The notes: generated from the sequence alone by a model not told the origin. A DNA stretch of 58,460 nucleotides from a virus (IMGVR_UViG_3300028840_003750:1-58460); one strand, 5' to 3'; numbered from the stretch's first letter, positions 20,441 through 43,566 are shown. Translations and numbers: made by a program.

Positions 20441-20477
20441 GCTTGACAGGTGCTAGTAGGTGCTAGTAGGTGTGCTA

Positions 20478-20493
20478 TGTTTCACGTGAAACG
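20478..20493. promoter_or_regulatory. parS-like site overlapping an antisense promoter
   Basis: TGTTTCACGTGAAACG overlapping tgcTATGTT and the GGAGGA RBS. Confidence 0.8.
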
Positions 20494-20499
20494 GAGGAG

Positions 20500-20799
20500 A
20501 TGATGAACGCTACAATCGCTAATTCAGCCGTAATCCCTGAAACCATTACTGAACCTATTCGGGTTGAGATTATCGGGGAACCAAATCCCTTGCTGCCTAT
20601 CAGACCGATGCGGCGACACGGTAATTGGCAGGTTGAGATAGAACCATGTAAGCAGTCAGAAGATGTTCTTGCTTTACTCCAAGCCCCAATCGGAACGGCC
20701 TACCAGGCTGGCTTCGTTGGGTGGCACCGCGGACAGGTTCTCGCATACGGCGTTAAACCACGAGATGCTGCTGAAGCGTTGCTCGCAAAAGCAGCATGA
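20500..20799 (+). CDS. Antisense cassette A hypothetical protein
   Basis: GGAGGAG RBS; flanked by two parS-like sites. Confidence 0.7.
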   Translation: MMNATIANSAVIPETITEPIRVEIIGEPNPLLPIRPMRRHGNWQVEIEPCKQSEDVLALLQAPIGTAYQAGFVGWHRGQVLAYGVKPRDAAEALLAKAA

Positions 20800-20804
20800 G
20801 CTAA

Positions 20805-20822
20805 ATGTTTCACGTGAAACAT
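20805..20822. promoter_or_regulatory. Perfect parS palindrome
   Basis: ATGTTTCACGTGAAACAT, an 18-bp palindrome containing the consensus TGTTTCACGTGAAACA. Confidence 0.85.
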
Positions 20823-22040
20823 CTATGCCTCACCAAGGATTAGCGAGCCCTTCGGGATGAGCGTCAGCCGAGTCCGCTGGCCGCGTAGGTCAGCGGACTT
20901 AGTGTTTTCCAGGATCCAGAATGGCTCATCGATGTCCTCTTCTGGGATCACAACCCTAGCTGTTGTCCCGGAAGTCCAGATAGCCCCAGTTGAGCTAAGC
21001 ATCCCTTCTACCGCTCCGGTTATCTGAAAGCCGTTTTGTGACCTGGCACCATGCATCGTGGTAGCCATGATAAGTGCACGTTGCCGATCCGATGCGCGCT
21101 TATCGAATTTGTATAACGGTTTGAAAGCTGCACCACCTTCGCTCTTATAGGTATGCCTACCAGCTGGTATTGTCTCTAGCTGCACCTTTGGAAACGGTGA
21201 GCCTTCTGGACGTGGCGCTCCATCAACTATGATGCCAGCTGTAGGGGCGGTGGCGCTCTTTTGGCCTACCTTATCAGCTTCCTTACCTACTAGGACTATT
21301 TCGCTGTATTGCCCATCATTGGTTTCCCTAACCATGGGTGGGGGGTTATTTATAAAGAGATCGCTATTAGGTATTCCTGCAACGTTACTGTGGCAAATTG
21401 TGTATGATGGATCTTGCTGAAAGTCAGGCTTCGCTAACAGCAATCCGCCATTGACGTCTACTATTAGAACTAGCCCAAAGCGTGCATATATCCTAGCAGC
21501 AAAGGCATATGCCTTTTCGCCATCTCCAACCTGAATATCCTTCTTTTTCAGCTCGGTAGTGATAACGTTAGCTTGCTGGTTAGTGATAGCCTTTCCTGTC
21601 ATTGCTGATAGGTTTTCAGCCGCTGCGATTCGTATCTGATCAAACCCATACATCTCAAGAGCAGCTAGCACAGCGTCAGCTACCTGTGTTCTCTCGTTGA
21701 AGTTTCGGGCCAAGTATGGATCAGCGCTTCCCTCAAACGGTGTAACCAGGACAGTCTTTGCCTCAATGCTGTACTCTGGTCCGGTGTTAGGATACACCCG
21801 ATCGGCTGTAGTGATCAGCATCGTTGCTTGTCGCACGCCGTTTAGCTTCAGCGCTACAAGCCGACCCTTAGTTAGCAGTCTTCTAGCCTCGGGACGCTGC
21901 GCCTTGTTCGGCCGCGCTTGGATGCTCAGTGTCTTTAGCGGATCGAGGTAATTATCTCTCCACTCAAAGCGAGTCCACGACGTGACAGAGTTTCCCTCGT
22001 TATCGATCAGCTCGATTGAAACTCTGTTCTTGTCAGTCAT
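20823..22040 (-). CDS. Baseplate hub (Mu gp44/gpP-like)
   Basis: GEKAYAFAARIYARFGL, YSEIVLVG, V.G...GAIWTSG and TRLTLIP. Confidence 0.85.
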   Translation of the reverse strand: MTDKNRVSIELIDNEGNSVTSWTRFEWRDNYLDPLKTLSIQARPNKAQRPEARRLLTKGRLVALKLNGVRQATMLITTADRVYPNTGPEYSIEAKTVLVTPFEGSADPYLARNFNERTQVADAVLAALEMYGFDQIRIAAAENLSAMTGKAITNQQANVITTELKKKDIQVGDGEKAYAFAARIYARFGLVLIVDVNGGLLLAKPDFQQDPSYTICHSNVAGIPNSDLFINNPPPMVRETNDGQYSEIVLVGKEADKVGQKSATAPTAGIIVDGAPRPEGSPFPKVQLETIPAGRHTYKSEGGAAFKPLYKFDKRASDRQRALIMATTMHGARSQNGFQITGAVEGMLSSTGAIWTSGTTARVVIPEEDIDEPFWILENTKSADLRGQRTRLTLIPKGSLILGEA

Positions 22041-22076
22041 TGTTAACCGTGCTATGTTTCACGTGAAACGGAGAAG
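22030..22076 (+). promoter_or_regulatory. Antisense promoter with embedded parS-like site (22055-22070)
   Basis: TTGTCA(22030)-17-TATGTT(22053) with extended TG, TGTTTCACGTGAAACG, then GGAG. Confidence 0.8.
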
Positions 22077-22199
22077 ATGATGAAGACGAAGAGATTTGTA
22101 GAGCTGCCCTGGAAAACCTACAAGCGTATCTTAGCACTCAAGGAAGCAACAGCTGCTGACTCAGCTAAATGTGTAGTCTTGAACGATTGCAGGAGCTAG
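22077..22199 (+). CDS. Cassette B 40-aa ribbon-helix-helix-like microprotein
   Basis: Hand-translated as MMKTKRFVELPWKTYKRILALKEATAADSAKCVVLNDCRS. Confidence 0.5.
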   Translation: MMKTKRFVELPWKTYKRILALKEATAADSAKCVVLNDCRS

Positions 22200-22205
22200 T
22201 TACAA

Positions 22206-22601
22206 ATGCCAAAGCATATATGTCCTGACTGCAAACAGCCAAAGAAAACAGCTAAATCCAAAAGGTGCAGATCGTGTGCTGGAAAGCATCGTAAGGGTAA
22301 ACCTTACAAGGTAGTTAGCTTTACCATTGAACCAGAGCAAGCTACGTGCAACCTTGCATTCAAGCAAAAGCTACCCAAAAACAGGCTATCAAAAAGAGAA
22401 GTGCTACACATGGCTATTGAGCTATCTGGGCTAGCTATAGATCTATGTGATTTTGAATGCTTGGCATTTAGCCCAAGTGTTTCAGATGAGCTTAATGCTC
22501 TTAGGAAATATGTAAAAGCTCGCGCTGCCCGCTATGGTAGAATGCTTTCGTTTGAGCTAGCTCATGAGGTAAACGATGCCACGAAGACGAAAGCTATCTG
22601 A
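22206..22601 (+). CDS. Cassette B zinc-finger protein
   Basis: CPDC...CRSC. Confidence 0.7.
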   Translation: MPKHICPDCKQPKKTAKSKRCRSCAGKHRKGKPYKVVSFTIEPEQATCNLAFKQKLPKNRLSKREVLHMAIELSGLAIDLCDFECLAFSPSVSDELNALRKYVKARAARYGRMLSFELAHEVNDATKTKAI

Positions 22602-22845
22602 GCTTCCAGTAAGGACATCTAGATTTAAGCACACTTGCTGCGTATGTCTCGACGATATCACTACTAGCCAGCGTTATCATGACGGTGGATACTTCAGACG
22701 CTCACATATATGGTGCGCTATCAAGGCTGAAAACGATCACTCAATAGTCAAGAGTAAAGAAGAGATCAATGAGGCAATAAGGCTGAAGTACGATGCTATA
22801 GCAAAGCAGGTTTACGCTAAGCACGATGCTAAGCATAGTACTTGA
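22576..22845 (+). CDS. Cassette B zinc-binding protein
   Basis: CCVC...HIWC; GAGG RBS. Confidence 0.65.
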   Translation: MPRRRKLSELPVRTSRFKHTCCVCLDDITTSQRYHDGGYFRRSHIWCAIKAENDHSIVKSKEEINEAIRLKYDAIAKQVYAKHDAKHST

Positions 22846-23710
22846 GCAATGTTCCAGTAGGAATACCTGGCGAGCTGGCTGCCACAGGATTAAGCTCAAT
22901 AGCCTCCTCTAGGCTCATCCCATACTGACGCGCAAAGGCGTCAAGTGTTGTTGGGTTGACTACAATGAATCCGTTTTGCTTTCGCGCCTTATTACCTAGG
23001 CTTTTAGCCGTGTCGTCAAGGGCAGCCCAGAATTCCGTTAGTGCGTCAATAGCACCCGTGGCTACGAAGCTGTTAACAGCTATGGCAGTGTCAACCATAA
23101 GCTCAACTACTGCCTTTGCCTTGGTAATCAATGATAGCACATTGAGCTGAGCTAGGAATATGGCAGACTGAATAGCCCTGGCCATCTCTTCTAGCGAAAG
23201 CTCGAATGACTCAGAAGGCACCTCGATATCAATAGCTGATGCTGCGGTATCAGCTGCTGCTGCTACTGTAGCCAGGTCAGGTATATTGACGAAAAACTCC
23301 GATTGCTCGGCAGCTGGATCTTCTACATGTTTTTCAAAGTTGATCTGTACAGCTGCTCCAGCCCTATCCTGTGCTGTGATTCTTACGTTTCCACCTTTTA
23401 CAATAGCCTCATAGTTTCCCCTAACCGGATGCTCTAATGGTCCTGGTTTACCGTCAGATAGAATGGCCCACCATTCATTAAAGTGATTGGGGAAAGCGCC
23501 ACTGTATAGAGTGTTGTAGAACAGTAGAGTTATTGGGGTTGGCGGATGTATATCACCTGTATCTTCATGTCCTGCGCCGTCTACGTATGGCCATTCAATA
23601 CGGTTTTGCCTACGTCCAAACTGAAAGCTAATATCAGTATAACGCGAATGTGTAGATCCTCGCCACTTCAATGGCGGCAATCCCTCGATAACATTCCACG
23701 GATCTGTCAT
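22829..23710 (-). CDS. DNA circulation-like protein (Mu gpN) with LysM-like C-terminus
   Basis: WRG, EWPYVDGAGHEDTG, PGPLEHPVRG and ELNP...IPTGTLL. Confidence 0.85.
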   Translation of the reverse strand: MTDPWNVIEGLPPLKWRGSTHSRYTDISFQFGRRQNRIEWPYVDGAGHEDTGDIHPPTPITLLFYNTLYSGAFPNHFNEWWAILSDGKPGPLEHPVRGNYEAIVKGGNVRITAQDRAGAAVQINFEKHVEDPAAEQSEFFVNIPDLATVAAAADTAASAIDIEVPSESFELSLEEMARAIQSAIFLAQLNVLSLITKAKAVVELMVDTAIAVNSFVATGAIDALTEFWAALDDTAKSLGNKARKQNGFIVVNPTTLDAFARQYGMSLEEAIELNPVAASSPGIPTGTLLKYYA

Positions 23711-23712
23711 AG

Positions 23713-25977
23713 CTACAGCGCTTCTGCCAAAGAAGATACATCTGCAAATCGTCTCAATGCTGCTATTGCGGTATCGGCAGTATTTGCAAAAAGCCCAAGC
23801 TTTTGATTGGCTTCATCTGTATCAATGTCAACCATCTTTCCGCCAGGACCTCTTGCAGCCTTCTCTTCTGGCGTAAGATCTCTTTGCCCAATTGTTCTGC
23901 GAGCTGTCTCGGTTTGAGCAAGCTGAGCTATCAATCTCTGCTGCTCAGCTTGCTGCGCTTCGGTTTCACCACCAAAGAAGCTACGTCCAAGAAATCCACT
24001 GACACCAGGTTTCTGTAATGCATATAGACCCCGTCCGGTCATCTCTGCTGTTGTTGGGTCGGCTGCAACACTAGCTGCTATTTGCTTAGCAACTGTCTCG
24101 TTTACCCCTGCAGAGGTAAACCTCTTTACAAATTCCTGCTGTGTTATATCAGACACATCGCCTTTGAATACACCTTCTCTAGCCCCAGCTATCTGTGCCT
24201 CTGCCTTTAACCTTCTTTCACCAAGGGCTACAAGCTCAGCTCTGGCTTCAGGCGCAGCTCTGAAACCGGCTGGCCCACCAACTCGTCTTGTTAATCTCTC
24301 CTCTTCAACCTTTATCTTTTGCAGCTCTCGTTGACCCTCCTTTATTGCCATCTCTGGAGTTTTCGGCTTCTTGGATATGATTCCTAAAGCCTCAAGACCA
24401 TCAACAGCTAATCCTGCAGCTTCAGCCATGGCAGTAAAAGCTCTACCTGCGCCGCTAAAGTCTGTTGTCTCAATGAAACCAGCAATCTGCTGTATCGTAT
24501 CTGTAATAGCTGGTGTAAACTCTGAGTTAACCTGCGCAACAAGAGACTCCCATGCAGCTGTTAAGTTTGCGCTTGTCTGCTGCTGAGCAATACCTAGATC
24601 TTCCTCTATCTCTGTTCTTGCAGCTGATACGTTAGTAACATTGTCGATCTCTTGACGCAAACGCTGCATTGCAGTAGCGGTAGCAGCTGCCTCTTGCTCA
24701 GGTGTTGCCTTACCCTTGAATGGTGCTAGCTTTTCTTGACGTACCTTATTAAATAATGAGATCAGCGGGGAAACAGCACGGATCCCGCGAACGTCAAAGA
24801 TCTTTTGAAGCTGAGGTAGATTGCCCCTTGCGCCACCAATGATCTCAACAAGAAGATCCTGTATGTCCCTAGTCTGAGTCTTGCCCTTGTCTTTGAATAC
24901 TGAGACACCTGTCTCCTTTTTGATCATAGCCTCTTTTGCTACGACCTGCTTAAACATATTTTCAACAGCTGTTGCGGCTTCTTCACCGCTTGGTGTGGCA
25001 CGTCTGGCGATCTGTGTTAGTCCACCAAGTGTAGCTAATCCACCGGTCCCTCTAAGACCAAACCTGGCTGCAGCAGCAGCTATCTTGGGAAACTGAGCGG
25101 CTGCGTCCTCCATCTCAAAGGCGCCACGTTTACCCTGGATAGCCAAAAGAGCTAAAGCGTCTCCCATGTCTTCTACTGACTTAATGTCGAATTTCTCGAA
25201 CATGTCAGCGGCAGCCGAACCTATCGCTTCAAACTCAGTGCCTGTTGCTACAGCTATCTCAGCAAATACCTTCCCATATTCCCTAGCTAGTTCTAGCCTA
25301 CCAGTCTTGGAAACGAAACGCTCCTGAGCAGCTATAACACCACCAGCTTGTGCACCCCTTACATCTTGCGCTATACCCTCAGCCTCACGTCTTAGGGTTC
25401 GAGGATCAACCCTCCCTCCAACGGTGGTACCCTTAATAGCTAGCCTGGTAGCACGGTCCTGCAGCGCTATACCCTGGCGAGCAGCTAGCCCCGCTACACC
25501 GGTAGCGGCCAGCCCGATGGCGCCGATCCCACGGAGCGCCCCGCCAGCAACCCGGCCAGCGATCTGCCGAATCATCCGCGAGCGGGAGCGCTGGCGGCTC
25601 TGCGCTTGGCGCTGCTGTCGCCGGGCAGTGCGCTCTGCCTCCCGCCGAGCACGGCGCTCAGCCCGCAATCTGGCCCGCTCCTGCTGTTTCAGGAGGCGCA
25701 GATGGTGCCGTGCTGCCCGCTGCTGCGCCTGCCGTTGCGCTCGCTCTACACGCCGCACAGAAGCGAGCTGAGCCCGCTCCGTCGCCTTGACGGCCTTGAG
25801 CTGCTCCCGTTGCCGAGCTGCTGCTGCCTTCCGCGCCTCGGCCGCAGCACCACGCCCCATGCCCGTCGATCGCCTGACAGTGCGCTTGGTCCGCTTGGCT
25901 GACTGCTCGATCGAGCGGAACGCTCGACGCACCCCAGCCTGACCAGCTGCGCTGAAAGTGTAGCGGATATCAGGCAT
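23713..25977 (-). CDS. Tail tape measure protein
   Basis: 754-aa Ala-rich helical protein; QGKRGAFEMEDAA and EAATAVEN. Confidence 0.9.
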   Translation of the reverse strand: MPDIRYTFSAAGQAGVRRAFRSIEQSAKRTKRTVRRSTGMGRGAAAEARKAAAARQREQLKAVKATERAQLASVRRVERAQRQAQQRAARHHLRLLKQQERARLRAERRARREAERTARRQQRQAQSRQRSRSRMIRQIAGRVAGGALRGIGAIGLAATGVAGLAARQGIALQDRATRLAIKGTTVGGRVDPRTLRREAEGIAQDVRGAQAGGVIAAQERFVSKTGRLELAREYGKVFAEIAVATGTEFEAIGSAAADMFEKFDIKSVEDMGDALALLAIQGKRGAFEMEDAAAQFPKIAAAAARFGLRGTGGLATLGGLTQIARRATPSGEEAATAVENMFKQVVAKEAMIKKETGVSVFKDKGKTQTRDIQDLLVEIIGGARGNLPQLQKIFDVRGIRAVSPLISLFNKVRQEKLAPFKGKATPEQEAAATATAMQRLRQEIDNVTNVSAARTEIEEDLGIAQQQTSANLTAAWESLVAQVNSEFTPAITDTIQQIAGFIETTDFSGAGRAFTAMAEAAGLAVDGLEALGIISKKPKTPEMAIKEGQRELQKIKVEEERLTRRVGGPAGFRAAPEARAELVALGERRLKAEAQIAGAREGVFKGDVSDITQQEFVKRFTSAGVNETVAKQIAASVAADPTTAEMTGRGLYALQKPGVSGFLGRSFFGGETEAQQAEQQRLIAQLAQTETARRTIGQRDLTPEEKAARGPGGKMVDIDTDEANQKLGLFANTADTAIAALRRFADVSSLAEAL

Positions 25978-25980
25978 ATC

Positions 25981-26007
25981 GTGCTATAGTTTCAAGCGAA
26001 ACGGAGC
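25981..26007 (+). promoter_or_regulatory. Antisense promoter with degenerate parS-like site
   Basis: GTGCTATAGTTTCAAGCGAAACGGAG; 13/16 match to TGTTTCACGTGAAACG. Confidence 0.6.
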
Positions 26008-26011
26008 AATC

Positions 26012-26101
26012 ATGATGGGTTGTAGCTTAGTGCCACAAGGGCTTGTGTGCATACCAAGAGCACCTAACGACGATGGTGTAATCGTAGAGTGTTGGCTCTA
26101 G
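26012..26101 (+). CDS. Cassette C 29-aa micro-ORF
   Basis: GGAG RBS; its TAG stop interlocks with the opposite gene's stop in CTAG (26098-26101). Confidence 0.45.
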   Translation: MMGCSLVPQGLVCIPRAPNDDGVIVECWL

Positions 26102-26457
26102 CGACGTCTACCAGCTCGGCTAGTGATCCGTCGGATCATAGCATCGATATCCATACCTGCTATGATACCGATCTGCGTGAAGTTTGAGAAACCTCTAGCT
26201 TGCACGAAAATCCCATATAGCACGCTAGCGCTTCCCATTGCCAGCTCTACCAGCCACCCATCTCGTGAGTTGCTAAGCTTTTTGGCAGTAGTTGCTTTGC
26301 GTAAGTTGGTTGTACGGTCCTGGTAAGTCTTGGTAGCTAGCTCTTCTGCCGCTGCTGCCTCTGCTATAGCCATTGCCTCAGACTCGATGCTATCGAGATC
26401 TGAAAGCGCAGAAGCAGCATGCTGACTGACATTGTCAGTCTGTCTTACCATTATCAT
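26098..26457 (-). CDS. HK97 gp10-like tail/neck protein
   Basis: YQDRTTNLRK...YGIFVQARG pattern. Confidence 0.45.
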   Translation of the reverse strand: MIMVRQTDNVSQHAASALSDLDSIESEAMAIAEAAAAEELATKTYQDRTTNLRKATTAKKLSNSRDGWLVELAMGSASVLYGIFVQARGFSNFTQIGIIAGMDIDAMIRRITSRAGRRR

Positions 26458-27337
26458 CTTTGGTCACGTCTATGTATTTGTCTTGCAATGCGCAACCTGC
26501 ATGATGATGTGGACCAGGTGTTGACGGATCTGAACATAGACAAGAGCATAATATACGCTCATCGTCTGCCTGGTTATCGATCTCAGGCTCTGGCTTATGC
26601 CAATCACCTACCAGATCCTGACATACCTTTTCCCATCCTTCTTCGCCATTAAGCGCAGCCTTCATGGCATCGACTGCTGCTAGCCGATCTGTATCCCAGC
26701 GCATAGTAAACAGGCATAGAAGATTGGTTAGCACCTCCCTGTTATACATTGCTAGCAACGCTTCTGGCATGTCGGCAATGTCAAATGCCGCCACAAGCTT
26801 TTCTCTTTCTTCGTCAAGATCAAGCTCCTCGGCAAGAGGTAGCCCGAGCATGCGAGCTATAGCCTCATTATAGAGGTTTACCAGCCCGTTAAGTGAAAAC
26901 GTATCAAAAATATCACGCATGAATGTAGGCGTGATAAACGAGCGTTTAGACGGATTTTCTGGATCTCGAGCAGCTCTGAACAGAGCCTGGATTGTTCCCT
27001 CATCTACGGTTACAGCAGGATCCTCTCTGAATGAATCAGAGCCTTTCCCAGCATGCTTAGCCAACGATGCTGTATGAGCATGAGCCGCTACAAGAGCTAG
27101 ATTGTCATCTGTCTTCTTGTTGAGCCTAAAGACAATATCAAGAGGGAAGTCTGTTCCGTCATGATCGACTAAGCTACCTAGTACAGCTGATGCGTCAACC
27201 TTCAGCTCTTTTTGCTTGGCTGAATGCAACGCAGCTGATAGCTTGCTTATATGACGCTCCTCACGCTTTGGGGCACCTGGCTCATCTCTTGAATACTTCT
27301 GTCTAAGCGTGTCCTCAATACCTTGATTGTTTGGCAC
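26435..27337 (-). CDS. Putative tail assembly chaperone
   Basis: Position between tube and tape measure. Confidence 0.5.
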   Translation of the reverse strand: MPNNQGIEDTLRQKYSRDEPGAPKREERHISKLSAALHSAKQKELKVDASAVLGSLVDHDGTDFPLDIVFRLNKKTDDNLALVAAHAHTASLAKHAGKGSDSFREDPAVTVDEGTIQALFRAARDPENPSKRSFITPTFMRDIFDTFSLNGLVNLYNEAIARMLGLPLAEELDLDEEREKLVAAFDIADMPEALLAMYNREVLTNLLCLFTMRWDTDRLAAVDAMKAALNGEEGWEKVCQDLVGDWHKPEPEIDNQADDERILCSCLCSDPSTPGPHHHAGCALQDKYIDVTKDDNGKTD

Positions 27338-27339
27338 TG

Positions 27340-27957
27340 TTATCTCAGTTTCATTGGCCTAGAAAACCTAGGCTTAGGTGGTGGCTTGTGCTTTTCAGAC
27401 AGCTTCATAGCAGCCATAACACATAGCCAATGTCCGTCTGTTAGCTGCTGCTGTGGCAGCCCATAGTATCTATCAGGCTCTGGCGCCCCTGTCCAGCCAT
27501 TTTTGCATTGAGCTAACGACACTGCTTGCTGTACATTGCTGATATGCTCAGCCCCGATCGCAAGAGTCTCGATCCACGCTTCTGAGTCAATTCTGCCGAA
27601 TGTTGGAGATACATCAAGCAACGGTTGAACTACAGCTGAGGCTAGCAGATTGAAGTCTACAGTGTGTAGATCCATTATCTCGCCCAGTGATCCAAACACA
27701 GGGATATCACCCTCATGTAAGCTTAGTACTATAAGCCTTGCCTGAACGATTGAATCTCTGATAACCTTAGCCTCTGAATCGCTTTCGTCAAAAGCCTCCT
27801 CTATCTCGATGCTTGTTAGCCCATAAACGAAAGTTGGGCACCCTGGCCGCACAATACCCGGAAACGGAAGCGAAACAGGTAAGCGCGGCCTAGGTGCCCG
27901 GTTTAGCAACCGGAACAAGCGCTCCGGAGACAGGTGCTGTGGTGGCTGCCGTAGCAC
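27340..27957 (-). CDS. Putative tail assembly chaperone
   Basis: Position; YYGLPQQQLTDGHWL. Confidence 0.5.
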   Translation of the reverse strand: MLRQPPQHLSPERLFRLLNRAPRPRLPVSLPFPGIVRPGCPTFVYGLTSIEIEEAFDESDSEAKVIRDSIVQARLIVLSLHEGDIPVFGSLGEIMDLHTVDFNLLASAVVQPLLDVSPTFGRIDSEAWIETLAIGAEHISNVQQAVSLAQCKNGWTGAPEPDRYYGLPQQQLTDGHWLCVMAAMKLSEKHKPPPKPRFSRPMKLR

Positions 27958-27971
27958 TTGGCTACACTATG

Positions 27972-28352
27972 CTACTCCCACTTGGGAACCTTCCCGACTG
28001 ACTGAAGCTCGTATGCAGCGGTTGTCGCAGTCCCGGTACCACTTGAGATTGTAATAGATCGCACAAGGAATGCAGCGTTGATCTCCTTGGTTGACCCAAT
28101 CTGCTGTACTACAACGTTTAGCTCAGCATACTCAAGCTTTGCTTTTACCAGATCAACCTCCAGACCAAAGGCTGGGTTAATTGCATTAGTGCCACTTATA
28201 CGGCACTTCTGCGGACCAGGGCTAACGCCAGCTGCTCCCTCTACAACAGTATCAACATCCTGATCGTTATCTCCCCATTCAACCTGAGCATCAGTGTTCT
28301 CGGCAAAAAGAACACCTTCGATTGTTATGATTAGCTGAGTATACAGTGCCAT
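27972..28352 (-). CDS. Tail tube protein
   Basis: 126 aa directly after the sheath; VDTVVEGAAGVSPGP. Confidence 0.75.
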   Translation of the reverse strand: MALYTQLIITIEGVLFAENTDAQVEWGDNDQDVDTVVEGAAGVSPGPQKCRISGTNAINPAFGLEVDLVKAKLEYAELNVVVQQIGSTKEINAAFLVRSITISSGTGTATTAAYELQSVGKVPKWE

Positions 28353-28360
28353 AATGACCT

Positions 28361-29929: not shown

Positions 29930-29935
29930 TACCTG

Positions 29936-34101: not shown

Positions 34102-34104
34102 ATA

Positions 34105-34539: not shown

Positions 34540-34565
34540 TGCTTCCGTTCCCTCGATATGGTGCC

Positions 34566-34617: not shown

Positions 34618-34630
34618 TATAGCACAATCT

Positions 34631-35938: not shown

Positions 35939-35964
35939 TGTATTCTTTCTCTCTTTCCTTGCTG

Positions 35965-36390
35965 TTATGTGCTGATACGGTTCACGGTGATTAGCTGTGC
36001 ACCAACCGTATCTCCTACTGTGCCAGTCTGCATGAATAGCACATAGATGTTATTGGCAGTAGCTCCGCCAGCAGCTTGAGCAGGCGCATCTGTCCAGCCA
36101 TCATTCCCAGATGACCATACTCCCTTCTTGCCACGGGTACATCCACCAGTGCCTACCCTTACACGAACAACCGGAGCAAACAGATTGACTGTTACCTGTA
36201 CACCATCTCCGCCTGTTACAGTTGAATCAAAGACCCCAAAAAACTCATCAGAGTCTGCAGAAGGGTCCTTGGCATGGTTTCCCGTTCCGTCCCATACAGC
36301 CGGATAACCACGGGTTGCTGTCTCACCGGTCTTTACCCCAACGGTCCACTGTGTCAGGTTGTACGTAAGCTGAATCGCTGTTCCGCTCAT
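35965..36390 (-). CDS. Head decoration/cement protein
   Basis: Size, position before the capsid gene, VRVGTGGCTRG. Confidence 0.7.
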   Translation of the reverse strand: MSGTAIQLTYNLTQWTVGVKTGETATRGYPAVWDGTGNHAKDPSADSDEFFGVFDSTVTGGDGVQVTVNLFAPVVRVRVGTGGCTRGKKGVWSSGNDGWTDAPAQAAGGATANNIYVLFMQTGTVGDTVGAQLITVNRIST

Positions 36391-36418
36391 AATCTAATAT
36401 CTCCTATACCAAGTCTAC

Positions 36419-37849
36419 CTAGCAGCCAGCCTCGGCGTCAAGTGCATCGCTTGCATCAGATCCGTCGCTGGTCGACCTATGGCTATTACCAGCATCAGGA
36501 TCGGTATCGTTACCAGCGCTGCGCTCAGTGTGAGTCATAGGCTGGCGCTGCTCGAGCATGCTCTTGTAGAGCTTTGGGTTGGTGCGACGAAGCTCCAAAA
36601 AGTTATCCTTTTCGGCAGGTGTGATCCTAACACCAACCTCCTTATCAACCTCAGCCTCGATCTCAGCCTCTTCCTTGGCCTTCTTGGCATCTGAGATCTC
36701 TTTCTCAGCATTCTCAGCTCGAGCCTTTGCCTCATCACGCTCATTTACCAGCTGCTCGTTCTGGCTCTTGTAAGCGCTGTTCTCAGTCTTCAGCCTCGCC
36801 ACTTCCGCATCTGCGGCTTTAAGCGCGGCTTTCGTTTCCTCAAGTGTCTTGTCGGACATATCCGCTCCTTGGTTGTTATCATCGCCGCGCACCGGCGATG
36901 GTGAGTCTTTTTGCAGATCATACGGCTCTGACCGCTCCCATGGCGGCTGCATATCAAACTGCTTATAGTGCCTGCCTAGGTGGCTACGCACGCCAGCTTT
37001 ATCAGAGTCTGGAATATTCACGCCACCGCGCGCACCTTGAATAGCATTTCCAGCTGCTATAACGCCTCCTCTATGGGTGCGAAGCTCGCCATCCATAACG
37101 TCATGGTGCGGTAGCTTGTAGCTATCAAACACCTCTGGGTTTGCGCTATCATACCATGTAAATGCCCGGCGATACTTACCCCAGTTGATACTATCTTCAC
37201 CGCCGGCCCATGCTCTAACACGCTTCTCAGCTGCTTTTGAATCCCATGTTCCAGTGATAACAGGGTACCCCTGGTATGGTACAACAGCTCTGCCAATGAC
37301 CACTACACCGTCAAGATGCTGCTTAATATACTCAAGCTCAGCCGATCTCTGCTCAGCCAATGCATCAGGGTTTGACCCAATCGGGGTAGCGCTTACCTCA
37401 AGCAACAGGTTGTCACTGAGCACAACAATGTCGCGATCGTCCCTTACCTCTCTACGGATATCGCGCGGCCGAAACCCTACCGAGACAGCTCTTTGAACAC
37501 CTTCAGCAAATAGCAACAGTACGCTATGTGCATGCTCATTAGCCTCCTTCGAGGCCATGATTATATCAAGCGCAAGCCGTGCTTGTGGTGTACCTTCGTT
37601 TTCTACCCGGTAGTTTTCACCCCTGCCTATGGGACGAGTATCTGGTTGAAAGATCTTGTTGTGGTTCCAGAGAATGACGGGGTTTGGACCGAACCTTGAA
37701 AAGTCCCAGATCTGCTCTACGATCTCATCATGCCCATCAATAGCCTCGGTTGAAGCAACCACTGGCACGCGTCGCTTCTTGACGTCAATTGCCTTGGTAT
37801 CGACAAGCAGATCTTTTCGGAAGATAGACATTTGATAATCAGCCACCAC
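36419..37849 (-). CDS. HK97-type prohead protease, extra domain and coiled-coil scaffold
   Basis: NPVILWNHN, PIGR, AVSVGF and LLEVSATPIGSNPDAL; C-terminal coiled coil. Confidence 0.9.
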   Translation of the reverse strand: MVADYQMSIFRKDLLVDTKAIDVKKRRVPVVASTEAIDGHDEIVEQIWDFSRFGPNPVILWNHNKIFQPDTRPIGRGENYRVENEGTPQARLALDIIMASKEANEHAHSVLLLFAEGVQRAVSVGFRPRDIRREVRDDRDIVVLSDNLLLEVSATPIGSNPDALAEQRSAELEYIKQHLDGVVVIGRAVVPYQGYPVITGTWDSKAAEKRVRAWAGGEDSINWGKYRRAFTWYDSANPEVFDSYKLPHHDVMDGELRTHRGGVIAAGNAIQGARGGVNIPDSDKAGVRSHLGRHYKQFDMQPPWERSEPYDLQKDSPSPVRGDDNNQGADMSDKTLEETKAALKAADAEVARLKTENSAYKSQNEQLVNERDEAKARAENAEKEISDAKKAKEEAEIEAEVDKEVGVRITPAEKDNFLELRRTNPKLYKSMLEQRQPMTHTERSAGNDTDPDAGNSHRSTSDGSDASDALDAEAGC

Positions 37850-37903
37850 GATGAACTACTGCTCTAACTGCGGCATCCTTTGACTCAAGAAGCTTTCGGA
37901 GAG

Positions 37904-38353
37904 CTACTGTTCGTTCAGGACCCTGTCATGTACCTCGCCTAACGACCTTGCGCCACGCTGGCCAGCTTCAACGGTAAGTGTCTGCCCGAGCACAGCCTTA
38001 GCCATCTCAGCGCCCATGAAGTCTGCTAATAGCTTATGAACACCCTTTGCGCCATCTGAGATATTGAATCGAATCAGCTTGCCATTGTCGTCAATCTCTG
38101 CGCATAGTGGACCCCAGCCATTAGCATCAATACCAAGTATGCCATTAAGAACACCTAGTAACCCTACACGATTGATACCATCATTAACACCAAGACGATC
38201 AATAGTATCTACTTGACAAGTAGGATGATCCGCCAACCTATTGTTACATGGTACTCTCGAGATTATGAGAGCCATGACAGCTTCTGAATCTGCCTCAACC
38301 ATCGAGTTGAGCCGCTCAATGATCTCATCAAGTGTTAGCTGTATCTGGCTCAT
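37904..38353 (-). CDS. Hypothetical protein ending in a 50-aa copy of a portal segment
   Basis: C-terminal FNISDGAK...EVHDRV matches the portal at 49/50 aa. Confidence 0.75.
   Translation of the reverse strand: MSQIQLTLDEIIERLNSMVEADSEAVMALIISRVPCNNRLADHPTCQVDTIDRLGVNDGINRVGLLGVLNGILGIDANGWGPLCAEIDDNGKLIRFNISDGAKGVHKLLADFMGAEMAKAVLGQTLTVEAGQRGARSLGEVHDRVLNEQ
37920..38068. repeat. 149-bp direct repeat of portal 38844-38992
   Basis: 7 mismatches, all within 37931-37960; 37961-38068 is identical. Confidence 0.95.
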
Positions 38354-38531
38354 CTTTGGTTACATATTGTGCAGGTAAATGATCTGGCAAGTAGCAAAAG
38401 AAGGCAGGTCCTAGCCCGATAGCACGATGCTTATAGCTACCACGATCAGCTGTCATGGTTTTACCGTATACTACCTTAACAGTAGCTACACTATCAGCTG
38501 CCTTGGTACCACTATCCTTCTTCTCCGCCAT
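38328..38531 (-). CDS. Hypothetical protein
   Basis: Overlaps the portal 3' end and the next gene. Confidence 0.55.
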   Translation of the reverse strand: MAEKKDSGTKAADSVATVKVVYGKTMTADRGSYKHRAIGLGPAFFCYLPDHLPAQYVTKDEPDTANT

Positions 38532-39922
38532 AGCGCTTTGCTTTCTTCTTGCTCAGAAGTCTCACCGCCAAACGAGCTACCACCTAGCAGCATATCTCCC
38601 TGCTCAGGCATTGGAATACCTAGCTTGTCATTCGGGTACCCTACTGGGATCTGCGCTCCTGCTTCAACAAGCTTCTTAAGCCCATCGGAGAAGCTAGACA
38701 TGTCAATGGCATCATCTGTGTTGAAAAAGAAAAGAGGCAACGGTGTCTCAGGTCCTCTGTTGAGCCATATGATCCACCTAATAAGATCCCGCATTAATGT
38801 AGCTGCCTGGCTTATAGCGTCATACTCTTTCCTATCTTTCCGTACCCTGTCATGCACCTCGCCAAGAGATCTTGCACCACGCTCGCCAGCTTCAACGGTA
38901 AGTGTCTGCCCGAGCACAGCCTTAGCCATCTCAGCGCCCATGAAGTCTGCTAATAGCTTATGAACACCCTTTGCGCCATCTGAGATATTGAAGCCCTTAA
39001 GGTCGATCTCCATGTCGTCACGAATAGCAGCAATCCCGCTAGTCGTCATACGACGCATCACATCAATAAGATCTTCTCTATCAGTTTTCCCGGCTGGTGA
39101 CGTCTTGTTCTTACCACCTGGGTATTTACCTATACGCCATGGCTTATAGGTAAGCTCACCTAGCTCTATCCAATCAGCTATAGCCCAGTTGCGAAACAGT
39201 GCAGCCCATATGAGACACCGTGCCAACCCTTCCCTGGCACGAATGTCTCCATTAACCCTGGGCAGATGGGTGATAAACTCACCCGGTTTCTCTGCTGTAA
39301 GATCGATCCCATTGAGACGATGACCTACTGAAAACGTATCGTTGAATACCAGTCTACCATCTATCTCACGAAACTCAAAGCGACGCTGTCCTATTGGCCA
39401 GAAGCCTTTAGGCATCATCCAATTGCCTTGCCTAATCCAAGCGATCTCACTAGTGGCATGACCGTGGTAGATAGAACCTTGCAGGTGGCTAATGGTATCA
39501 GTCAGGCCCTGCATATCCTGACCTTCGCCATTAGCTCTACCTAGTGCATCTTCGACTAGATGAGCATCACCTATTGCATCGTCTGTAGGCTCTTCATCTC
39601 GCTCCCTCCATGGTACAATGGTATAGCCTAAAGGAGCTAATGAATTCTCCCTTGTCTCAAGGATAGATTCAAGAGTACAGTCCTTTTGGCGAGACTCATT
39701 TCCAAGATCTACGATCCGATAGATGATGCCTTGGTCAGCCTCCCGGTAGATCTGACTGACCTGTGATGGTGTTAGATTCCCTCCTATCCTTTGCTGCTGG
39801 TGTGATAGTGGCAGATCCGGTACGAACCTGTCAATTGTGGCAGTGGCAGCTGCCTTAGCCCCACCTACAACCTTGTCACGCAGTGTGTCTATACTGCGCT
39901 GTATGAGCTGAGCTATACCCAT
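38486..39922 (-). CDS. Portal protein (Mu gp29/DUF935 family)
   Basis: GLARCLIW, W..LGE....PWRIGKY, AKAVLGQTLT and SLGEVHDRVR. Confidence 0.92.
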   Translation of the reverse strand: MGIAQLIQRSIDTLRDKVVGGAKAAATATIDRFVPDLPLSHQQQRIGGNLTPSQVSQIYREADQGIIYRIVDLGNESRQKDCTLESILETRENSLAPLGYTIVPWRERDEEPTDDAIGDAHLVEDALGRANGEGQDMQGLTDTISHLQGSIYHGHATSEIAWIRQGNWMMPKGFWPIGQRRFEFREIDGRLVFNDTFSVGHRLNGIDLTAEKPGEFITHLPRVNGDIRAREGLARCLIWAALFRNWAIADWIELGELTYKPWRIGKYPGGKNKTSPAGKTDREDLIDVMRRMTTSGIAAIRDDMEIDLKGFNISDGAKGVHKLLADFMGAEMAKAVLGQTLTVEAGERGARSLGEVHDRVRKDRKEYDAISQAATLMRDLIRWIIWLNRGPETPLPLFFFNTDDAIDMSSFSDGLKKLVEAGAQIPVGYPNDKLGIPMPEQGDMLLGGSSFGGETSEQEESKALWRRRRIVVPRQLIV

Positions 39923-39957
39923 CTGCTGTTAGCTCATTTGGCTCAAGTTGACAGTGC

Positions 39958-39992
39958 TTGACTCAGGCTGCGGCATGTGCTATTGGAGCCGT
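39958..39992 (+). promoter_or_regulatory. Antisense promoter of cassette F
   Basis: TTGACT(39958)-17-TATTGG(39981) inside GTGCTA, followed by GAAAACGGAAG. Confidence 0.55.
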
Positions 39993-40121
39993 ATGAAAAC
40001 GGAAGATTGCAAGACTTGGTGCGCCAAAGACTATGTTGGCTCTACAAATGTCTACCAAAAACCTGCCTTGATCGAGGTGGCTAAACTACAGCAAATCCTG
40101 GCTATCAACCAAAAGCAATGA
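39993..40121 (+). CDS. Cassette F 42-aa micro-ORF
   Basis: Hand-translated as MKTEDCKTWCAKDYVGS...NQKQ. Confidence 0.4.
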   Translation: MKTEDCKTWCAKDYVGSTNVYQKPALIEVAKLQQILAINQKQ

Positions 40122-41445
40122 TGTCGATCACATCGCCTGACTGATTATTAGGTGATCCGCCACCAGCAAGAGTAAGTGAGACTGCATTACCTGTGATCGT
40201 GTATGCTTCGTCTTGCGGCCGGCTCCGGTTCACCAGAATGCAGTGGCTTGGGGCAAAGGTAAAGTATGCCTGAACGTTACCTTTTGCAATATCAGCTGCC
40301 GTTAGAGTGATCGAGGTCATAGCGGCCGGAACAGGACCTTGCTCCTGACCTTGACGCATTGTAGCACCGTCCCAAATGTCAGTGCCGGTTGTAAGCGTTT
40401 CTGTCGTAGCTGTAGGAGTATCGCTAGGTGCAATACTACCACCAGCAGCATCAGCGCTGATAACCACAACGTCACCTGTGGTAACACCAGCACCAGCTAG
40501 GAACGTCTCAGTTACAGCACCGTCATATGTGATATTCGGAGCGTCAATTACTCCGTTCACAGCATTGATGAAGTTGGCTCGAGATACAGCCGAGCTTGCA
40601 CCTTGGTATACCCAGATATAGCCAGCGGTACCACCGGAAGGAGGCGTATTAGCATTGAACTCGTATACGTCTGCTCCGATGGTAACGGTATCACCAGCGG
40701 CAATCGGACCAGGTGCACCAAGCATCCTGATACGGTTCTGCATTGGCATACCAGGTCGATTACCACCTAGCTCTTGAGTAATACTCTCGAGATCATCTGT
40801 GGTGAAGTATTCCCCAGCGTCATCGGCTCCGAGCATACTTGCACCGAGACCAGTGTCATTGGATGCAAGCTCAGCAATTGTAGGAATCAGACGCAGCCAC
40901 CTACCATTAGCAGGAGTGTCATCTGGCACTCGCACATAGTCAGAGGCACCAGCGCTAGACGTAGCATCATACAGCCACAGAGAACCGTCGGCATAGGCGT
41001 CATCATCAAGCACAATGGCGATCTGTCCGTCAGCTCGAGCTGTAGCAGAGTAGGCCGTCTGTGCTGAGGTATCGGCGAACACCAGCGCGATCCTTGCCCC
41101 AAGGTCGGCCGTCACAGCCTCAAGGTCAGAGCCGGCAAACCGGTCCGCAGTGTCCGTCACAGCCACTTCATCAGCGTCCAGCCCGGCCGAACCACCGGGC
41201 CGCACAAGGTTGATCCAGCGCCCAGTAGCCGGCGCATCGTCGGGTACAAGCACCGTGTCGCTGGCTCCGGCAGTGCTCGTGACATCGAACACCCAAAGCG
41301 AGTAATCACCGCTCACAGCTGTGATTACGCCGTGGGCGCGGCTGTAGGCGCTCTTGTCCTGTGCGGTCAGTGCAGCCTGTGAGGCGACGGGAGACGCGAT
41401 AACGAGGCCGGTTGTGTCGTGGGTACGAGCGGTCGGAGTGGTCAT
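40105..41445 (-). CDS. Ala/Gly/Thr-rich virion protein with a duplicated N-terminal module
   Basis: LWVFDVTSTAGASDTVLVPDDAPATGRW and LWLYDATSSAGASDYVRVPDDTPANGRW. Confidence 0.7.
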   Translation of the reverse strand: MTTPTARTHDTTGLVIASPVASQAALTAQDKSAYSRAHGVITAVSGDYSLWVFDVTSTAGASDTVLVPDDAPATGRWINLVRPGGSAGLDADEVAVTDTADRFAGSDLEAVTADLGARIALVFADTSAQTAYSATARADGQIAIVLDDDAYADGSLWLYDATSSAGASDYVRVPDDTPANGRWLRLIPTIAELASNDTGLGASMLGADDAGEYFTTDDLESITQELGGNRPGMPMQNRIRMLGAPGPIAAGDTVTIGADVYEFNANTPPSGGTAGYIWVYQGASSAVSRANFINAVNGVIDAPNITYDGAVTETFLAGAGVTTGDVVVISADAAGGSIAPSDTPTATTETLTTGTDIWDGATMRQGQEQGPVPAAMTSITLTAADIAKGNVQAYFTFAPSHCILVNRSRPQDEAYTITGNAVSLTLAGGGSPNNQSGDVIDIIAFG

Positions 41446-41478
41446 GGCGGGTTTCTTTCTGTCAACTCGTGACAACCT

Positions 41479-41503
41479 GTGCTAGGCTAGAAGTAAAACG
41501 AAG
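41479..41503 (+). promoter_or_regulatory. Antisense promoter of cassette G
   Basis: GTGCTAGGCTAGAAGTAAAACGAAG; first 15 nt identical to 30835. Confidence 0.65.
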
Positions 41504-41537
41504 CCGGCTCTGCAGTGAGCCGAGGGAGATCTTTGAG

Positions 41538-41855
41538 ATGAGAATGGCAGATCCAGCTGTCCAAAAAACATACGATATCTGTCTAGAAGTATTAGCTGAA
41601 AGAGCTAGGCAGAAACGAAAAGGCTACAGCCCAGATCATGATGACGATCATGACGATGAAAGCCTATTGCAAGCTGCTAGATGCTTCCTGTTTGGAACAC
41701 CATATAGTAGAGTTGATCACAGAAACACAGAGCTAGCTGGACCACCATGGCCATGGGATCCTGTGTTTGACACCAGGGCAAAGCACTCTAGACGCAAACA
41801 GCTCATCATTGCTATGGCTCTGATCTGTGCTGAGGTAGAAAGGCTTGACAGATGA
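41538..41855 (+). CDS. Cassette G conserved-type phage protein
   Basis: ERARQ..KGYSPDHDD...WPW...ALICAEVERLDR motif. Confidence 0.75.
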   Translation: MRMADPAVQKTYDICLEVLAERARQKRKGYSPDHDDDHDDESLLQAARCFLFGTPYSRVDHRNTELAGPPWPWDPVFDTRAKHSRRKQLIIAMALICAEVERLDR

Positions 41856-42112
41856 TGCTAGGGAAACAGAGCGAGTTTCAGGTCGTCGCCTACGAACGGA
41901 AGTCGAAAAAACGATGCTCTATTAAGCTAATATATAAGCTCTCACAGCTCTGCTATGTTGACGTAGTCAAAAAAAACAACCGTGCAATCGCGATAGGATT
42001 CAATGAAGCTGGGGCAGCAGCAGGATATTCTGCTAGCAACTGGTCACAAGAGGAGATTAGCTCAGCTAAAGCCTATGCCGAAAGAATAGCAGAAGCGAGA
42101 TTGGTAAGGTAA
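41852..42112 (+). CDS. Cassette G hypothetical protein
   Basis: ATGA coupling. Confidence 0.65.
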   Translation: MMLGKQSEFQVVAYERKSKKRCSIKLIYKLSQLCYVDVVKKNNRAIAIGFNEAGAAAGYSASNWSQEEISSAKAYAERIAEARLVR

Positions 42113-42113
42113 T

Positions 42114-42365
42114 ATGACGATACGAAGAGAAACAGAGCTAGCAATCCAGCGATGGCACCACTTTCGTCTGCTTGACGTGGACAATACCAAAGCAGGCCTA
42201 GAGTCTGGCTCTGGAACTACAACCACAGATGGCAAGCTGTTTATTGGCTATAGGTTCTACCGTATAATAGCAAACATGCTATGTCGCCCGAAAAACTCGC
42301 TAGAGCAAGCAACTGTTGACATGCTAGAAGCAATGGCAAAGGAGTACGACAATGCCAAAGGTTGA
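42114..42365 (+). CDS. Cassette G hypothetical protein
   Basis: AAGG RBS. Confidence 0.65.
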   Translation: MTIRRETELAIQRWHHFRLLDVDNTKAGLESGSGTTTTDGKLFIGYRFYRIIANMLCRPKNSLEQATVDMLEAMAKEYDNAKG

Positions 42366-42552
42366 GATCAATCTAACCGAATATGAGCATCATAAGCTCA
42401 TATTGATAGCAGCTGCTAAAAGCAAAGATGGTAAAACCGTAACAGTTGAGCAATGCGTCAAAGCATTCGCTCGAAGCTGTCAACCTGGTGGTGGACCTAA
42501 ACCTTGGAAACATCCTATGGTAAAAGCAAATGAGAGAGTAGCTTATGAATAA
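42352..42552 (+). CDS. Cassette G ribbon-helix-helix-like protein
   Basis: MPKVEINLTEYEHHKLILIAA...TVEQCVKAFAR; AAGGAG RBS. Confidence 0.6.
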   Translation: MPKVEINLTEYEHHKLILIAAAKSKDGKTVTVEQCVKAFARSCQPGGGPKPWKHPMVKANERVAYE

Positions 42553-42750
42553 GGTTATCGAATGCTCTGAATGTAATAATCTGCTGCATGGTGGAATGAT
42601 CCACAACGAGGACCACATACGCTATATAGATGCACTACATGTGACTATCTGCTAGCTTACCCTAGCGGTGTCTTTGCTCACAGTGAAAAGGTATGCTGGA
42701 CGTGTATACACTGGGGATCGCCAGATGATAGAATTTGCAAAGCGATGTAA
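42545..42750 (+). pseudogene. Possibly frameshifted zinc-finger gene
   Basis: MNKVIECSEC in one frame, SAAWWND...RCTTC...CWTC in another, switching near 42578. Confidence 0.35.
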
Positions 42751-43051
42751 GCTATGCAAAACATTTTCATGGCGTTATGCGGAATACTGTCCACGATACA
42801 GATGCTACGGTGAGCTAATAGACATTATTGTCAAGCGGTATCGAGTATTAAAGCTTACTGAGTTTCCACCTGGCTGGAAACAGTTTAACGGCAGATGGCC
42901 AGCTGAGTGGGTTGAGCTACCAGAATCCCCTCACAACATCCCAACGACGTTGCCAACCATGAGCAAAGACAACTCTTGCCCAAGACGTGCTCCTATATGC
43001 TTCGGAGAAGAGGAAACAAGCTTATACCAAGGAGCGAGACAGAAGCGATAA
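42725..43051 (+). CDS. Cassette G Cys-rich protein
   Basis: CKLC...CPRYRC. Confidence 0.6.
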   Translation: MIEFAKRCKLCKTFSWRYAEYCPRYRCYGELIDIIVKRYRVLKLTEFPPGWKQFNGRWPAEWVELPESPHNIPTTLPTMSKDNSCPRRAPICFGEEETSLYQGARQKR

Positions 43052-43053
43052 AG

Positions 43054-43509
43054 ATGCCTAAATGCCACTGCGGTGGACGAGTAGTCGCGAGACCCACTAC
43101 GAATATGTTGAAACAGATCTTTGGGATAGATAAAATGGGAGCAGCTAGATACTACACATGTAGTTGGTGCGGTGTTAGAATTGACAAGGTGGAAGGCGAG
43201 CTTTCAGACTATGAGCTGCCTGAGCCAGCTGATTGGAGGATTTACTCTATACAAGATCTTGTTAGAGCACACCAATTTGGACGTTGCCCAGGACGCCAAG
43301 AATCTAAAAACCGCTACAAGTCTAGCTTGCTTGATCAGATTGAGTCATACGCTGCAGAGATTGGTCAGCATGCATCAATAGCTAACGGAGAGCCAAAGCG
43401 CAAACTGATAGCACTACGTCGAAAGGCGAAGCTAGCAGGTGTAAGCATTAGAGATATTGGTAACGCCACATCTAAAGGATGGGGAAAGCACTCTGGATTA
43501 GTATGCTAA
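43054..43509 (+). CDS. Cassette G zinc-ribbon plus helical domain protein
   Basis: CHCGG...CSWCG; the C-terminus resembles 9680-10054. Confidence 0.7.
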   Translation: MPKCHCGGRVVARPTTNMLKQIFGIDKMGAARYYTCSWCGVRIDKVEGELSDYELPEPADWRIYSIQDLVRAHQFGRCPGRQESKNRYKSSLLDQIESYAAEIGQHASIANGEPKRKLIALRRKAKLAGVSIRDIGNATSKGWGKHSGLVC

Positions 43510-43566
43510 CCGAATCCCCTACCAGGCGACCGTGAGTTTGAGATTGCTAAACAGACTGTTGAGCTA

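Follow-up and report, generated by a model that had tools for sequence, protein, structure and literature searches.

The genome of an uncultured myovirus (IMGVR_UViG_3300028840_003750, the window of 58,460 nucleotides analysed here) carries seven plus strand cassettes (c1 to c7) inside the minus strand operon for its virion proteins, and the core of the promoter motif common to these cassettes is, as judged by its sequence, the consensus chromosomal parS TGTTTCACGTGAAACA, the target sequence of ParB/Spo0J. A sequence-only reading of the same DNA had described the motif (GTG[CT]TA-N10-13-RAAACGRAG) and had taken the cassettes for a distributed, excludon-like system that silences the late operon; it overlooked the parS identity of the motif core (N10-13 plus GAAAC), and with this identity the likely mechanism changes. 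We put the probability at roughly 0.5 that the intervals are accessory cassettes of the moron or promoter-early stem-loop (PeSL) kind, with sigma70-type promoters of their own, some of them bound by the ParB of the host.

parS sequences at the cassette promoters

The dyad GTTTC-N4-GAAAC is present at four of the cassette promoters and a fifth time, as a perfect 18-nt palindrome, at the end of c1. Scanning the window for TGTTTCACGTGAAACA with three or fewer mismatches gave four matches (0, 1, 1 and 1 mismatches) against an expectation of 0.16, and none of 100 shuffles reached four. These matches and the more divergent copy at c3 are as follows:

20806-20821, unstranded: perfect parS (16/16), in the 23 nt that separate the convergent stops of c1 and the baseplate hub gene
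20478-20493, unstranded: parS-like (15/16), TGTTTCACGTGAAACG, from the -10 to about +6 of the predicted c1 promoter
22055-22070, unstranded: parS-like (15/16), over -10/+1 of the predicted c2 promoter
34080-34095, unstranded: parS-like (15/16), over -10/+1 of the predicted c5 promoter
25988-26003: degenerate parS (12/16), AGTTTCAAGCGAAACG, at c3

The c1, c2 and c5 copies occupy one register, from about -9 to +7, that is from inside the -10 hexamer to the first G of the Shine-Dalgarno (SD) site, and c4 retains the right half-site GTGAAAC. The 16-bp palindrome agrees with TGTTNCACGTGAAACA, which places it by sequence in the parS class: in the relevant passage of PMC10197239, TGTTTCACGTGAAACA serves as the consensus for locating chromosomal parS sites, and TGTTNCACGTGAAACA and GTTTCACGTGAAAC are tabulated as parS for B. 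subtilis, C. glutamicum and M. smegmatis (PMC7022226). Passages of the latter source also state that ParB binds GTTTCAC half-sites, that in P. aeruginosa ParB represses the genes next to the intergenic parS3 and parS4 to which it is bound, and that flanking genes are silenced by ParB homologues of plasmids (PMC7022226). A search of all six frames of the phage for ParB_N, HTH_ParB and AAA_31 gave no match at E <= 1, and since neither ParA nor ParB was found in the phage, the presumptive binder is the ParB of the host. DnaA-box, Rex, CRP and LexA operators had been considered for the dyad and were abandoned after the parS identity was found. We found no description of host-type parS on phage genomes in the open-access full text searched, where 'pars' matched many unrelated words.

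Short contigs of other metagenome runs match the phage only at these places of about 20 nt, some with two to three copies 14-20 nt apart, as would be expected of parS clusters on other replicons. BLAST found the palindrome in 97 Arthrobacter phage records. Arthrobacter phage Emotion (L084, OQ709216.1), an unrelated genome of 45 kb and 68% G+C, harbours seven parS sites with two or fewer mismatches, two perfect sites among them, against an expectation of 0.02 for the 12-mer; most are intergenic and next to terminator-like hairpins:

4447, 6604, 18000, 19679, 20041, 25113 and 44984: parS sites of Emotion

No ParB_N match was found in Emotion either, and tblastn of all open reading frames (ORFs) of the window against it revealed no common regulator. 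In Arthrobacter phage Rizwana the parS match lies within a gene, and none of 77 related loci (677 kb) contains parS with two or fewer mismatches.

Reversed coding cassettes in the virion operon

The gene map confirms seven plus strand intervals between minus strand virion genes, each a promoter-bearing unit (by prediction) with one common regulatory module, as the sequence-only reading had held. With predicted promoter elements, they read:

20441..20822, plus strand: cassette 1, tandem GGTGCTAGTA, extended -10 TGC-TATGTT (20473-20481), SD GGAGG, ORF 20500-20799 (99 aa)
22030..22845, plus strand: cassette 2, -35 TTGTCA (22030-22035, first codons of the hub gene), 17-nt spacer, TGC-TATGTT
22077-22199, 22206-22601 and 22576-22845, plus strand: ORFs of cassette 2
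25962..26101, plus strand: cassette 3, -10 TGC-TATAGT, degenerate parS, SD, 29-aa ORF 26012-26101, CTAG-interlocked stop
30816..31459, plus strand: cassette 4, -35 TTGAAA, 17 nt, TGC-TAGGCT, half-parS GTGAAAC at 30850, SD
30867-31151 and 31154-31459, plus strand: ORFs of cassette 4, CTAG-interlocked stop
34055..34311, plus strand: cassette 5, -35 TTGATG, 17 nt, TGT-TATGTT, SD, 46-aa ORF 34105-34245
39958..40121, plus strand: cassette 6, -35 TTGACT, 17 nt, TGC-TATTGG, 42-aa ORF 39993-40121
41460..43509, plus strand: cassette 7, -10 TGC-TAGGCT (41480-41488), TGTCA-N5-TGACA dyad at the -35, seven ORFs 41538-43509
20870-20900, plus strand: terminator-like hairpin after c1, inside the 3' end of the hub gene, 13 pairs (8 G-C), T run on the plus strand only
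22926-22943, plus strand: weak hairpin after c2

The spacing described earlier also holds: the motif lies 8, 3, 6 and 2 nt from the divergent start codon at c2 to c5 and 31, 54 and 33 nt from it at c1, c6 and c7 (the c7 distance being measured from the ATG at 41445, a start common to the relative L004). At their far ends the cassettes abut or overlap the convergent gene, with overlaps of 17, 4, 4 and 17 nt (c2, c3, c4 and c6), gaps of 23, 66 and 57 nt (c1, c5 and c7) and interlocked CTAG stops that are real at 26098 (c3) and 31456 (c4). The accompanying statement that no obvious terminator follows is limited to five of the seven cassettes, because a strong hairpin trails c1 and a weak one c2. 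Contigs of four sequencing runs showed no indel or rearrangement at c1 to c6, the comparison ending before c7.

The motif, said to stand at the start of each cassette, is found at six of them (20472, 22049, 25981, 30835, 34074 and 41479, all on the plus strand), against a mean of 0.003 matches in 300 dinucleotide shuffles. The c6 site is approximate: at 39977 (interval 39923-40121) the GTGCTA part is present, the spacing is 14 nt and the sequence reads GAAAACGGAAG, with its second half inside the ORF. Taken apart, the motif consists of an extended -10 (TGn-TAnnnT), the dyad, and an SD site followed by ATG. TGn precedes the -10 in all seven cassettes and TAnnnT is present in six (c6 has TATTGG), RAAACGRAG ends in the SD GGAG with the ATG 6-9 nt beyond, and the c1, c2 and c5 modules are 94-100% identical across the 36 nt from GTG to ATGAA. 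TTGnnn occurs exactly 17 nt upstream of the -10 at c2, c4, c5 and c6, with c1, c3 and c7 lacking a -35, and at c2, c4 and c5 it falls inside the first codons of the adjoining structural gene; genome-wide, cassettes included, TTG stands at 17 nt in 3 of 114 TGYTANNNT sites (binomial P = 1.6e-5). The predicted leaders of the cassette mRNAs are about 12-15 nt long and an SD-like site precedes the first ORF in 7/7 cassettes; the c6 mRNA is possibly leaderless, its ATG being only 6 nt past the -10. Between a TTGACA hexamer and the -10 of c1, GGTGCTAGTA is repeated 2.5 times in tandem (20449-20475, plus strand), giving up to three staggered TGCTA -10-like elements upstream of c1. The TGTCA-N5-TGACA dyad over the c7 -35 region (41462-41478) recurs in L004 at about 1075-1091 on the minus strand, with conserved arms and a different spacer, which suggests a second, different operator.

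The cassettes resemble the plus strand arm of the genome in their common TGCTA extended -10 and in SD usage, and the reported match to the TGCTAnnnT of the early-arm promoters is confirmed. SD-like sites precede 10/16 cassette ORFs and 12/19 plus arm genes versus 6/36 virion genes and 4/20 other minus strand genes. Counted by strand over the genome, they precede 22/35 plus strand genes (about 63%) versus 10/56 minus strand genes (about 18%), and in many minus strand genes stop and start codons overlap. In other respects the early-arm promoters belong to a different repeated module in three copies, a terminator-promoter-SD arrangement that bears a close likeness to the PeSL of T4, and a third promoter variant, TGCTAGGCTAGAAG, is common to c4, c7 and the promoter of the last plus arm gene (10060):

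3380-3431, 4537-4625 and 8164-8252, plus strand: early-arm module, AT-rich inverted repeat (AGAAAAAAAG...CTTTTTTCT), CTTGCAT, TGCTAnnAT, AAGGAGATAGCAGATG
10060..10126, plus strand: related module before the last plus arm gene, TGCTATAGCTAGAAG, hairpin, TGAAACGGAG, ATG at 10127

The cassettes code for proteins, as codon usage, SD sites and the homologues of four ORFs indicate. In a log-odds test of codon usage, for which 21 confident genes served as the training set, the cassette ORFs scored positive and best of the six frames in 18/18 tests (17 ORFs and one alternative start), with values of 0.02-0.20. For fourteen real genes held out of the training the score was 0.14-0.34, and ten stop-free antisense ORFs within structural genes were all negative in their own frame. 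The cassette ORFs score below core genes, which is what acquired genes would be expected to do. For the c1 protein there are two homologues of the same length (54% and 44% identity) and repeated matches in one protein of 2839 aa, c4a has one homologue (57% identity), c7a matches nine PHROG families to which no function is assigned and c7d is conserved in L004. The 131-aa ORF of c2 had no homologue among 5.8 billion proteins, and several cassette products are small, Cys-rich and zinc-ribbon-like, with no family match. The proposal that ORFs of 29-46 aa imply a role for the transcription itself is countered by the coding signal, SD site and ATG found in every cassette.

The close relatives amount to two short contigs, L004 and L005 (portal identity 76%); searches of viral and metagenome contigs with the sheath, g253 and hub proteins revealed no further ones, and exact motif scans of viral contigs returned nothing or the L004 contig alone. 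In L004, c6 is absent, with 27 nt between the g456 homologue and the portal gene, and cassette 7 comprises about 560 nt and two ORFs versus 2033 nt and seven ORFs here. The c7 promoter block (about 52 nt) is about 90% identical in L004 versus about 72% for the flanking gene, so at c7, the sole promoter testable in a close relative, the promoter stays while the cargo varies, which supports the sequence-only reading on this point. In L005 the head gene is followed by a small insert of the same orientation. Synteny by tblastn with 71 distant loci (portal identity <=49%, same virion gene order) revealed that c4 is absent from all eight relatives holding both flanking genes, which are adjacent or no more than about 100 nt apart. 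The neighbours of c6 abut in L010, L011, L016 and L071; in L027 a 376-aa gene of the same orientation occupies that junction. Where c5 would be, between the head gene and the g153 homologue, relatives have a g75 homologue only, and there is no room in L010, L014 and L020. The terminase-portal junction varies among relatives, with co-oriented genes in L010. Because c4, c5 and c6 are missing from relatives, the cassettes are probably lineage-specific insertions (the comparison covering c4 to c7). With c6 absent from the closest relative and c4 to c6 from distant ones, the layout is a recent acquisition and not conserved control architecture.

Genome and virion module

The source is an uncultured myovirus with a complete genome, the 58,460-bp record having a terminal overlap of 144 bp. 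Megablast of the genome gave zero matches, with no cultured phage close, and the head protein reaches at most 28% identity with those of B3-like Pseudomonas phages. The plus strand arm runs from 58004 round to 10603 and encodes an exonuclease-ERF fusion, SSB, an endonuclease, an XRE-type helix-turn-helix (HTH) protein and a DnaA-C-like HTH protein. The minus strand block extends from about 57.8 kb down to 10.9 kb and includes a helicase, a DNA methylase and two tRNAs (the Rfam scan of the genome found tRNAs only, n=2) as well as virion genes for large terminase, Mu-like portal, protease/scaffold, major head protein, sheath, tape measure and baseplate. Neither integrase nor transposase was found among the genes of the genome, and three HTH proteins of the phage have no target assigned. 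PHROG/Pfam matches define the virion module:

10938..45198, minus strand: virion module, large terminase to baseplate/tail, broken by the seven cassettes
43567-45198, minus strand: large terminase (TerL)
38486-39922, minus strand: Mu-like portal
34631-35938, minus strand: major head protein
28361-29929, minus strand: sheath
23713-25977, minus strand: tape measure
20823-22040 and 22829-23710, minus strand: baseplate hub

Several further features of the genome were observed. The exonuclease-ERF fusion is a single 481-aa ORF (620-2065, plus strand) with both a 5'-3' exonuclease domain and an annealing domain of the ERF type. A 158-nt duplication of 94% identity (37911-38068 and 38835-38992), at which the assembly graphs from two runs break, leaves the 149-aa gene after the portal with a C-terminus duplicating an inner part of the portal gene (Portal_Mu match). 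A 102-aa gene of the virion module (18731-18996, minus strand) consists mostly of three tandem 99-nt repeats that are 76-96% identical. Directly after the head gene (34540-34630, minus strand), GTGCTATATAG is followed by a long G+C-rich hairpin and then a 75-aa gene; the hairpin is kept in L005 and may be an attenuator or an internal promoter of the late operon. At 49264-49345 (plus strand), opposite the gap between tRNA-Thr and tRNA-Met, a promoter-like TGCTAAGCT has a terminator-like hairpin (49319-49336) within about 50 nt downstream, and the two could form a small antisense RNA unit.

Possible roles of the parS sites

On the reading we favour, accessory cassettes gated by host ParB, the cassettes would be insertions, in reverse orientation, at junctions between genes of the virion operon, and host sigma70 RNA polymerase would transcribe each from its own extended -10 promoter, often with TTGnnn, into an mRNA with a short leader and a strong SD site. 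Host ParB would bind the four parS sites, occlude the c1, c2 and c5 promoters, and load as clamps that slide over the middle of the virion module. Expression of the cassettes, and possibly of the late genes or the positioning of the genome, would be set by the ratio of ParB to phage parS: replication would titrate ParB and relieve repression or, equally, the phage DNA might be silenced, condensed or partitioned. Promoter activity, ParB binding and these consequences are what we infer from the arrangement of the sites. It is possible, if doubtful, that a tailed phage captured a host centromere sequence and wired it into its promoters, with host ParB as a borrowed repressor or silencer, perhaps also as a partition factor, and with titration as a switch by which the antisense cassettes and the late operon would respond to copy number. 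The cultured Arthrobacter phages, given the seven sites and lack of ParB in Emotion, may have come to the same use of parS independently.

Several points weigh against gating by ParB. The scheme is drawn from sequence and assumes the host ParB; because the four sites are in part duplicates of a single module, they amount to about two independent events, and the last position of each of the three sites embedded in promoters is changed from A to G. Since c3, c4, c6 and c7 have no full parS, ParB does not explain all seven cassettes, and as a rule parS-bound ParB is a mild repressor. What a purely lytic infection would gain from host ParB binding is not obvious, and the absence of parS from all of the related loci makes the feature dispensable for this phage group.

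Among the alternatives, it is rather unlikely that the four parS sites serve mainly as a borrowed centromere, by which the phage genome would ride the host ParABS/SMC machinery, either for partition as an episomal prophage or in a carrier state or for positioning and condensation of the DNA during replication, and that they overlap promoters incidentally as intergenic space is scarce. The perfect site at 20806-20821 does lie between convergent stops and away from any promoter, a stretch of 1.6 kb holds three of the sites in a centromere-like cluster, and integrase, transposase, ParA and ParB were not found in the phage; moreover, N15 is described as using four separate inverted repeat (IR) sites, with SopB silencing a nearby promoter (passages in PMC7205306). 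However, three of the four sites stand in identical register over -10/+1 and are fused to an SD site, which has the look of regulatory design. Also, apart from the XRE-type HTH protein, nothing of a plasmid replication or immunity module was identified, and known phage-plasmids encode their own ParAB. We also regard as unlikely the excludon-like model of the sequence-only reading, by which early promoters would fire head-on and antisense transcription or RNA would silence the virion genes, even though all seven units oppose the operon, five of them have no terminator-like hairpin, four overlap the 3' end of the convergent gene, and their promoters and SD usage are like those of the plus arm. 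Early antisense RNAs over structural genes, with a proposed shut-off of late genes, are likewise described for PAK_P3 (in part of PMC4933390), and given the head-on geometry, which is real, cassette and late promoters must interfere whenever both are active. But every cassette, including those of 29-46 aa, has an SD site, an ATG and a codon signal, c1 and c2 are followed by plus strand hairpins, and relatives run the same virion operon without c4, c5 and c6. Rho would also be expected to shorten untranslated antisense tails.

That the dyad has nothing to do with ParB, being a phage-repressor operator or a mobile stem-loop of the PeSL type that matches parS by coincidence, seems improbable. Two copies of the dyad flank cassette 1, three HTH proteins of the phage await a target, and PeSLs are described as a sigma70-like promoter with a stem-loop overlapping or after the -10, an SD site and a start codon, located before ORFans (passages in PMC2839356). 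Against this, one 16/16 and three 15/16 matches to a single, universally conserved 16-mer are very unlikely by chance, the palindrome is enriched in the unrelated Emotion, with which tblastn finds no common DNA-binding protein, and the hairpin is weak (-7.6 kcal/mol). The motif might finally be read on the minus strand, as a late promoter that gives a leaderless mRNA for the structural gene 2-8 nt away: the four adjoining structural genes have no SD, and TATAGC stands 5 nt before the ATG of the tape-measure gene. This is hardly credible, as the reverse complement, by eye, has no TAnnnT at the right distance in three of four cases and the motif ends in an SD site and ATG on the plus strand. Furthermore, an SD is absent from 30/36 minus strand structural genes, so its absence is usual and nothing special at these four.

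Compared with known elements, the module appears closest in form to morons and to the PeSL cassettes of T4-type phages, with a palindrome that equals the chromosomal parS. Like chromosomal parS for ParB/Spo0J, the 16-bp palindrome corresponds to TGTTTCACGTGAAACA (one perfect copy and three at 15/16) with GTTTCAC half-sites, and intergenic sites of that kind can repress adjacent genes, as a passage of PMC7022226 describes. Here, in contrast, the sites are on the genome of a tailed phage that has no ParA or ParB of its own, inside a virion module and not near a chromosomal origin, and three are fused in one register to the -10 and SD. With PeSLs the modules have in common a repeated sigma70-type promoter, palindrome, SD site and start codon before ORFans (part of PMC2839356), as well as variable positions and a cargo that differs between close relatives. 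They differ in that the phage is not T4-type (its head genes are Mu-like) and the modules face backwards in the late operon. Moreover, the cassette promoters lack an AT-rich upstream region, the upstream DNA being coding DNA of the neighbour (an AT-rich inverted repeat is present only in the three early-arm modules), and the palindrome is short, would make a weak terminator (-7.6 kcal/mol, without a T run) and equals parS. Morons of lambdoid and other phages are extra genes between conserved genes with their own promoter. The cassettes resemble them in that c4, c5 and c6 are absent from relatives and lie between conserved genes, with a promoter-like sequence at all seven; unlike morons, a terminator-like hairpin follows only c1 and c2, seven are present in one operon, all reversed and with one common module, and lysogeny is not evident.

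In an excludon, as in Listeria, a long antisense transcript covers and inhibits an adjacent operon of opposite orientation while itself acting as mRNA; the geometry here would permit this, with overlaps of 4-17 nt and no hairpin after five of the seven cassettes. The PAK_P3 antisense RNAs likewise oppose late structural genes, as the predicted and possibly early transcription does here, where it could lower late expression, yet according to a passage of PMC4933390 they are mostly non-coding and within genes, whereas the units here are coding, between genes and known by prediction. The phage-plasmid N15 also has several single centromere sites and a ParB-family protein that silences a nearby promoter (part of PMC7205306). 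Unlike the phage described here, with its host-chromosome-type sites and no partition genes, N15 encodes SopAB itself and has a site sequence of its own. Its natural centromere sites reportedly lie in promoter regions. The phage has neither ParA nor ParB of its own and is in this respect no phage-plasmid of the N15/P1 type.

ParB-parS is known as a system for chromosome and plasmid segregation with side effects on transcription, and host-type parS fused to phage promoters in a ParB-less phage appears to be a new variation on known elements. If host-type parS does serve a phage as a promoter operator or as a borrowed centromere, this would represent a new viral way to sense the state of the host, or the copy number of the virus itself, that requires no phage regulator, and it would explain how head-on cassettes are tolerated inside a virion operon. 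As Emotion and its relatives carry the same sites, the question is open to culturable systems.

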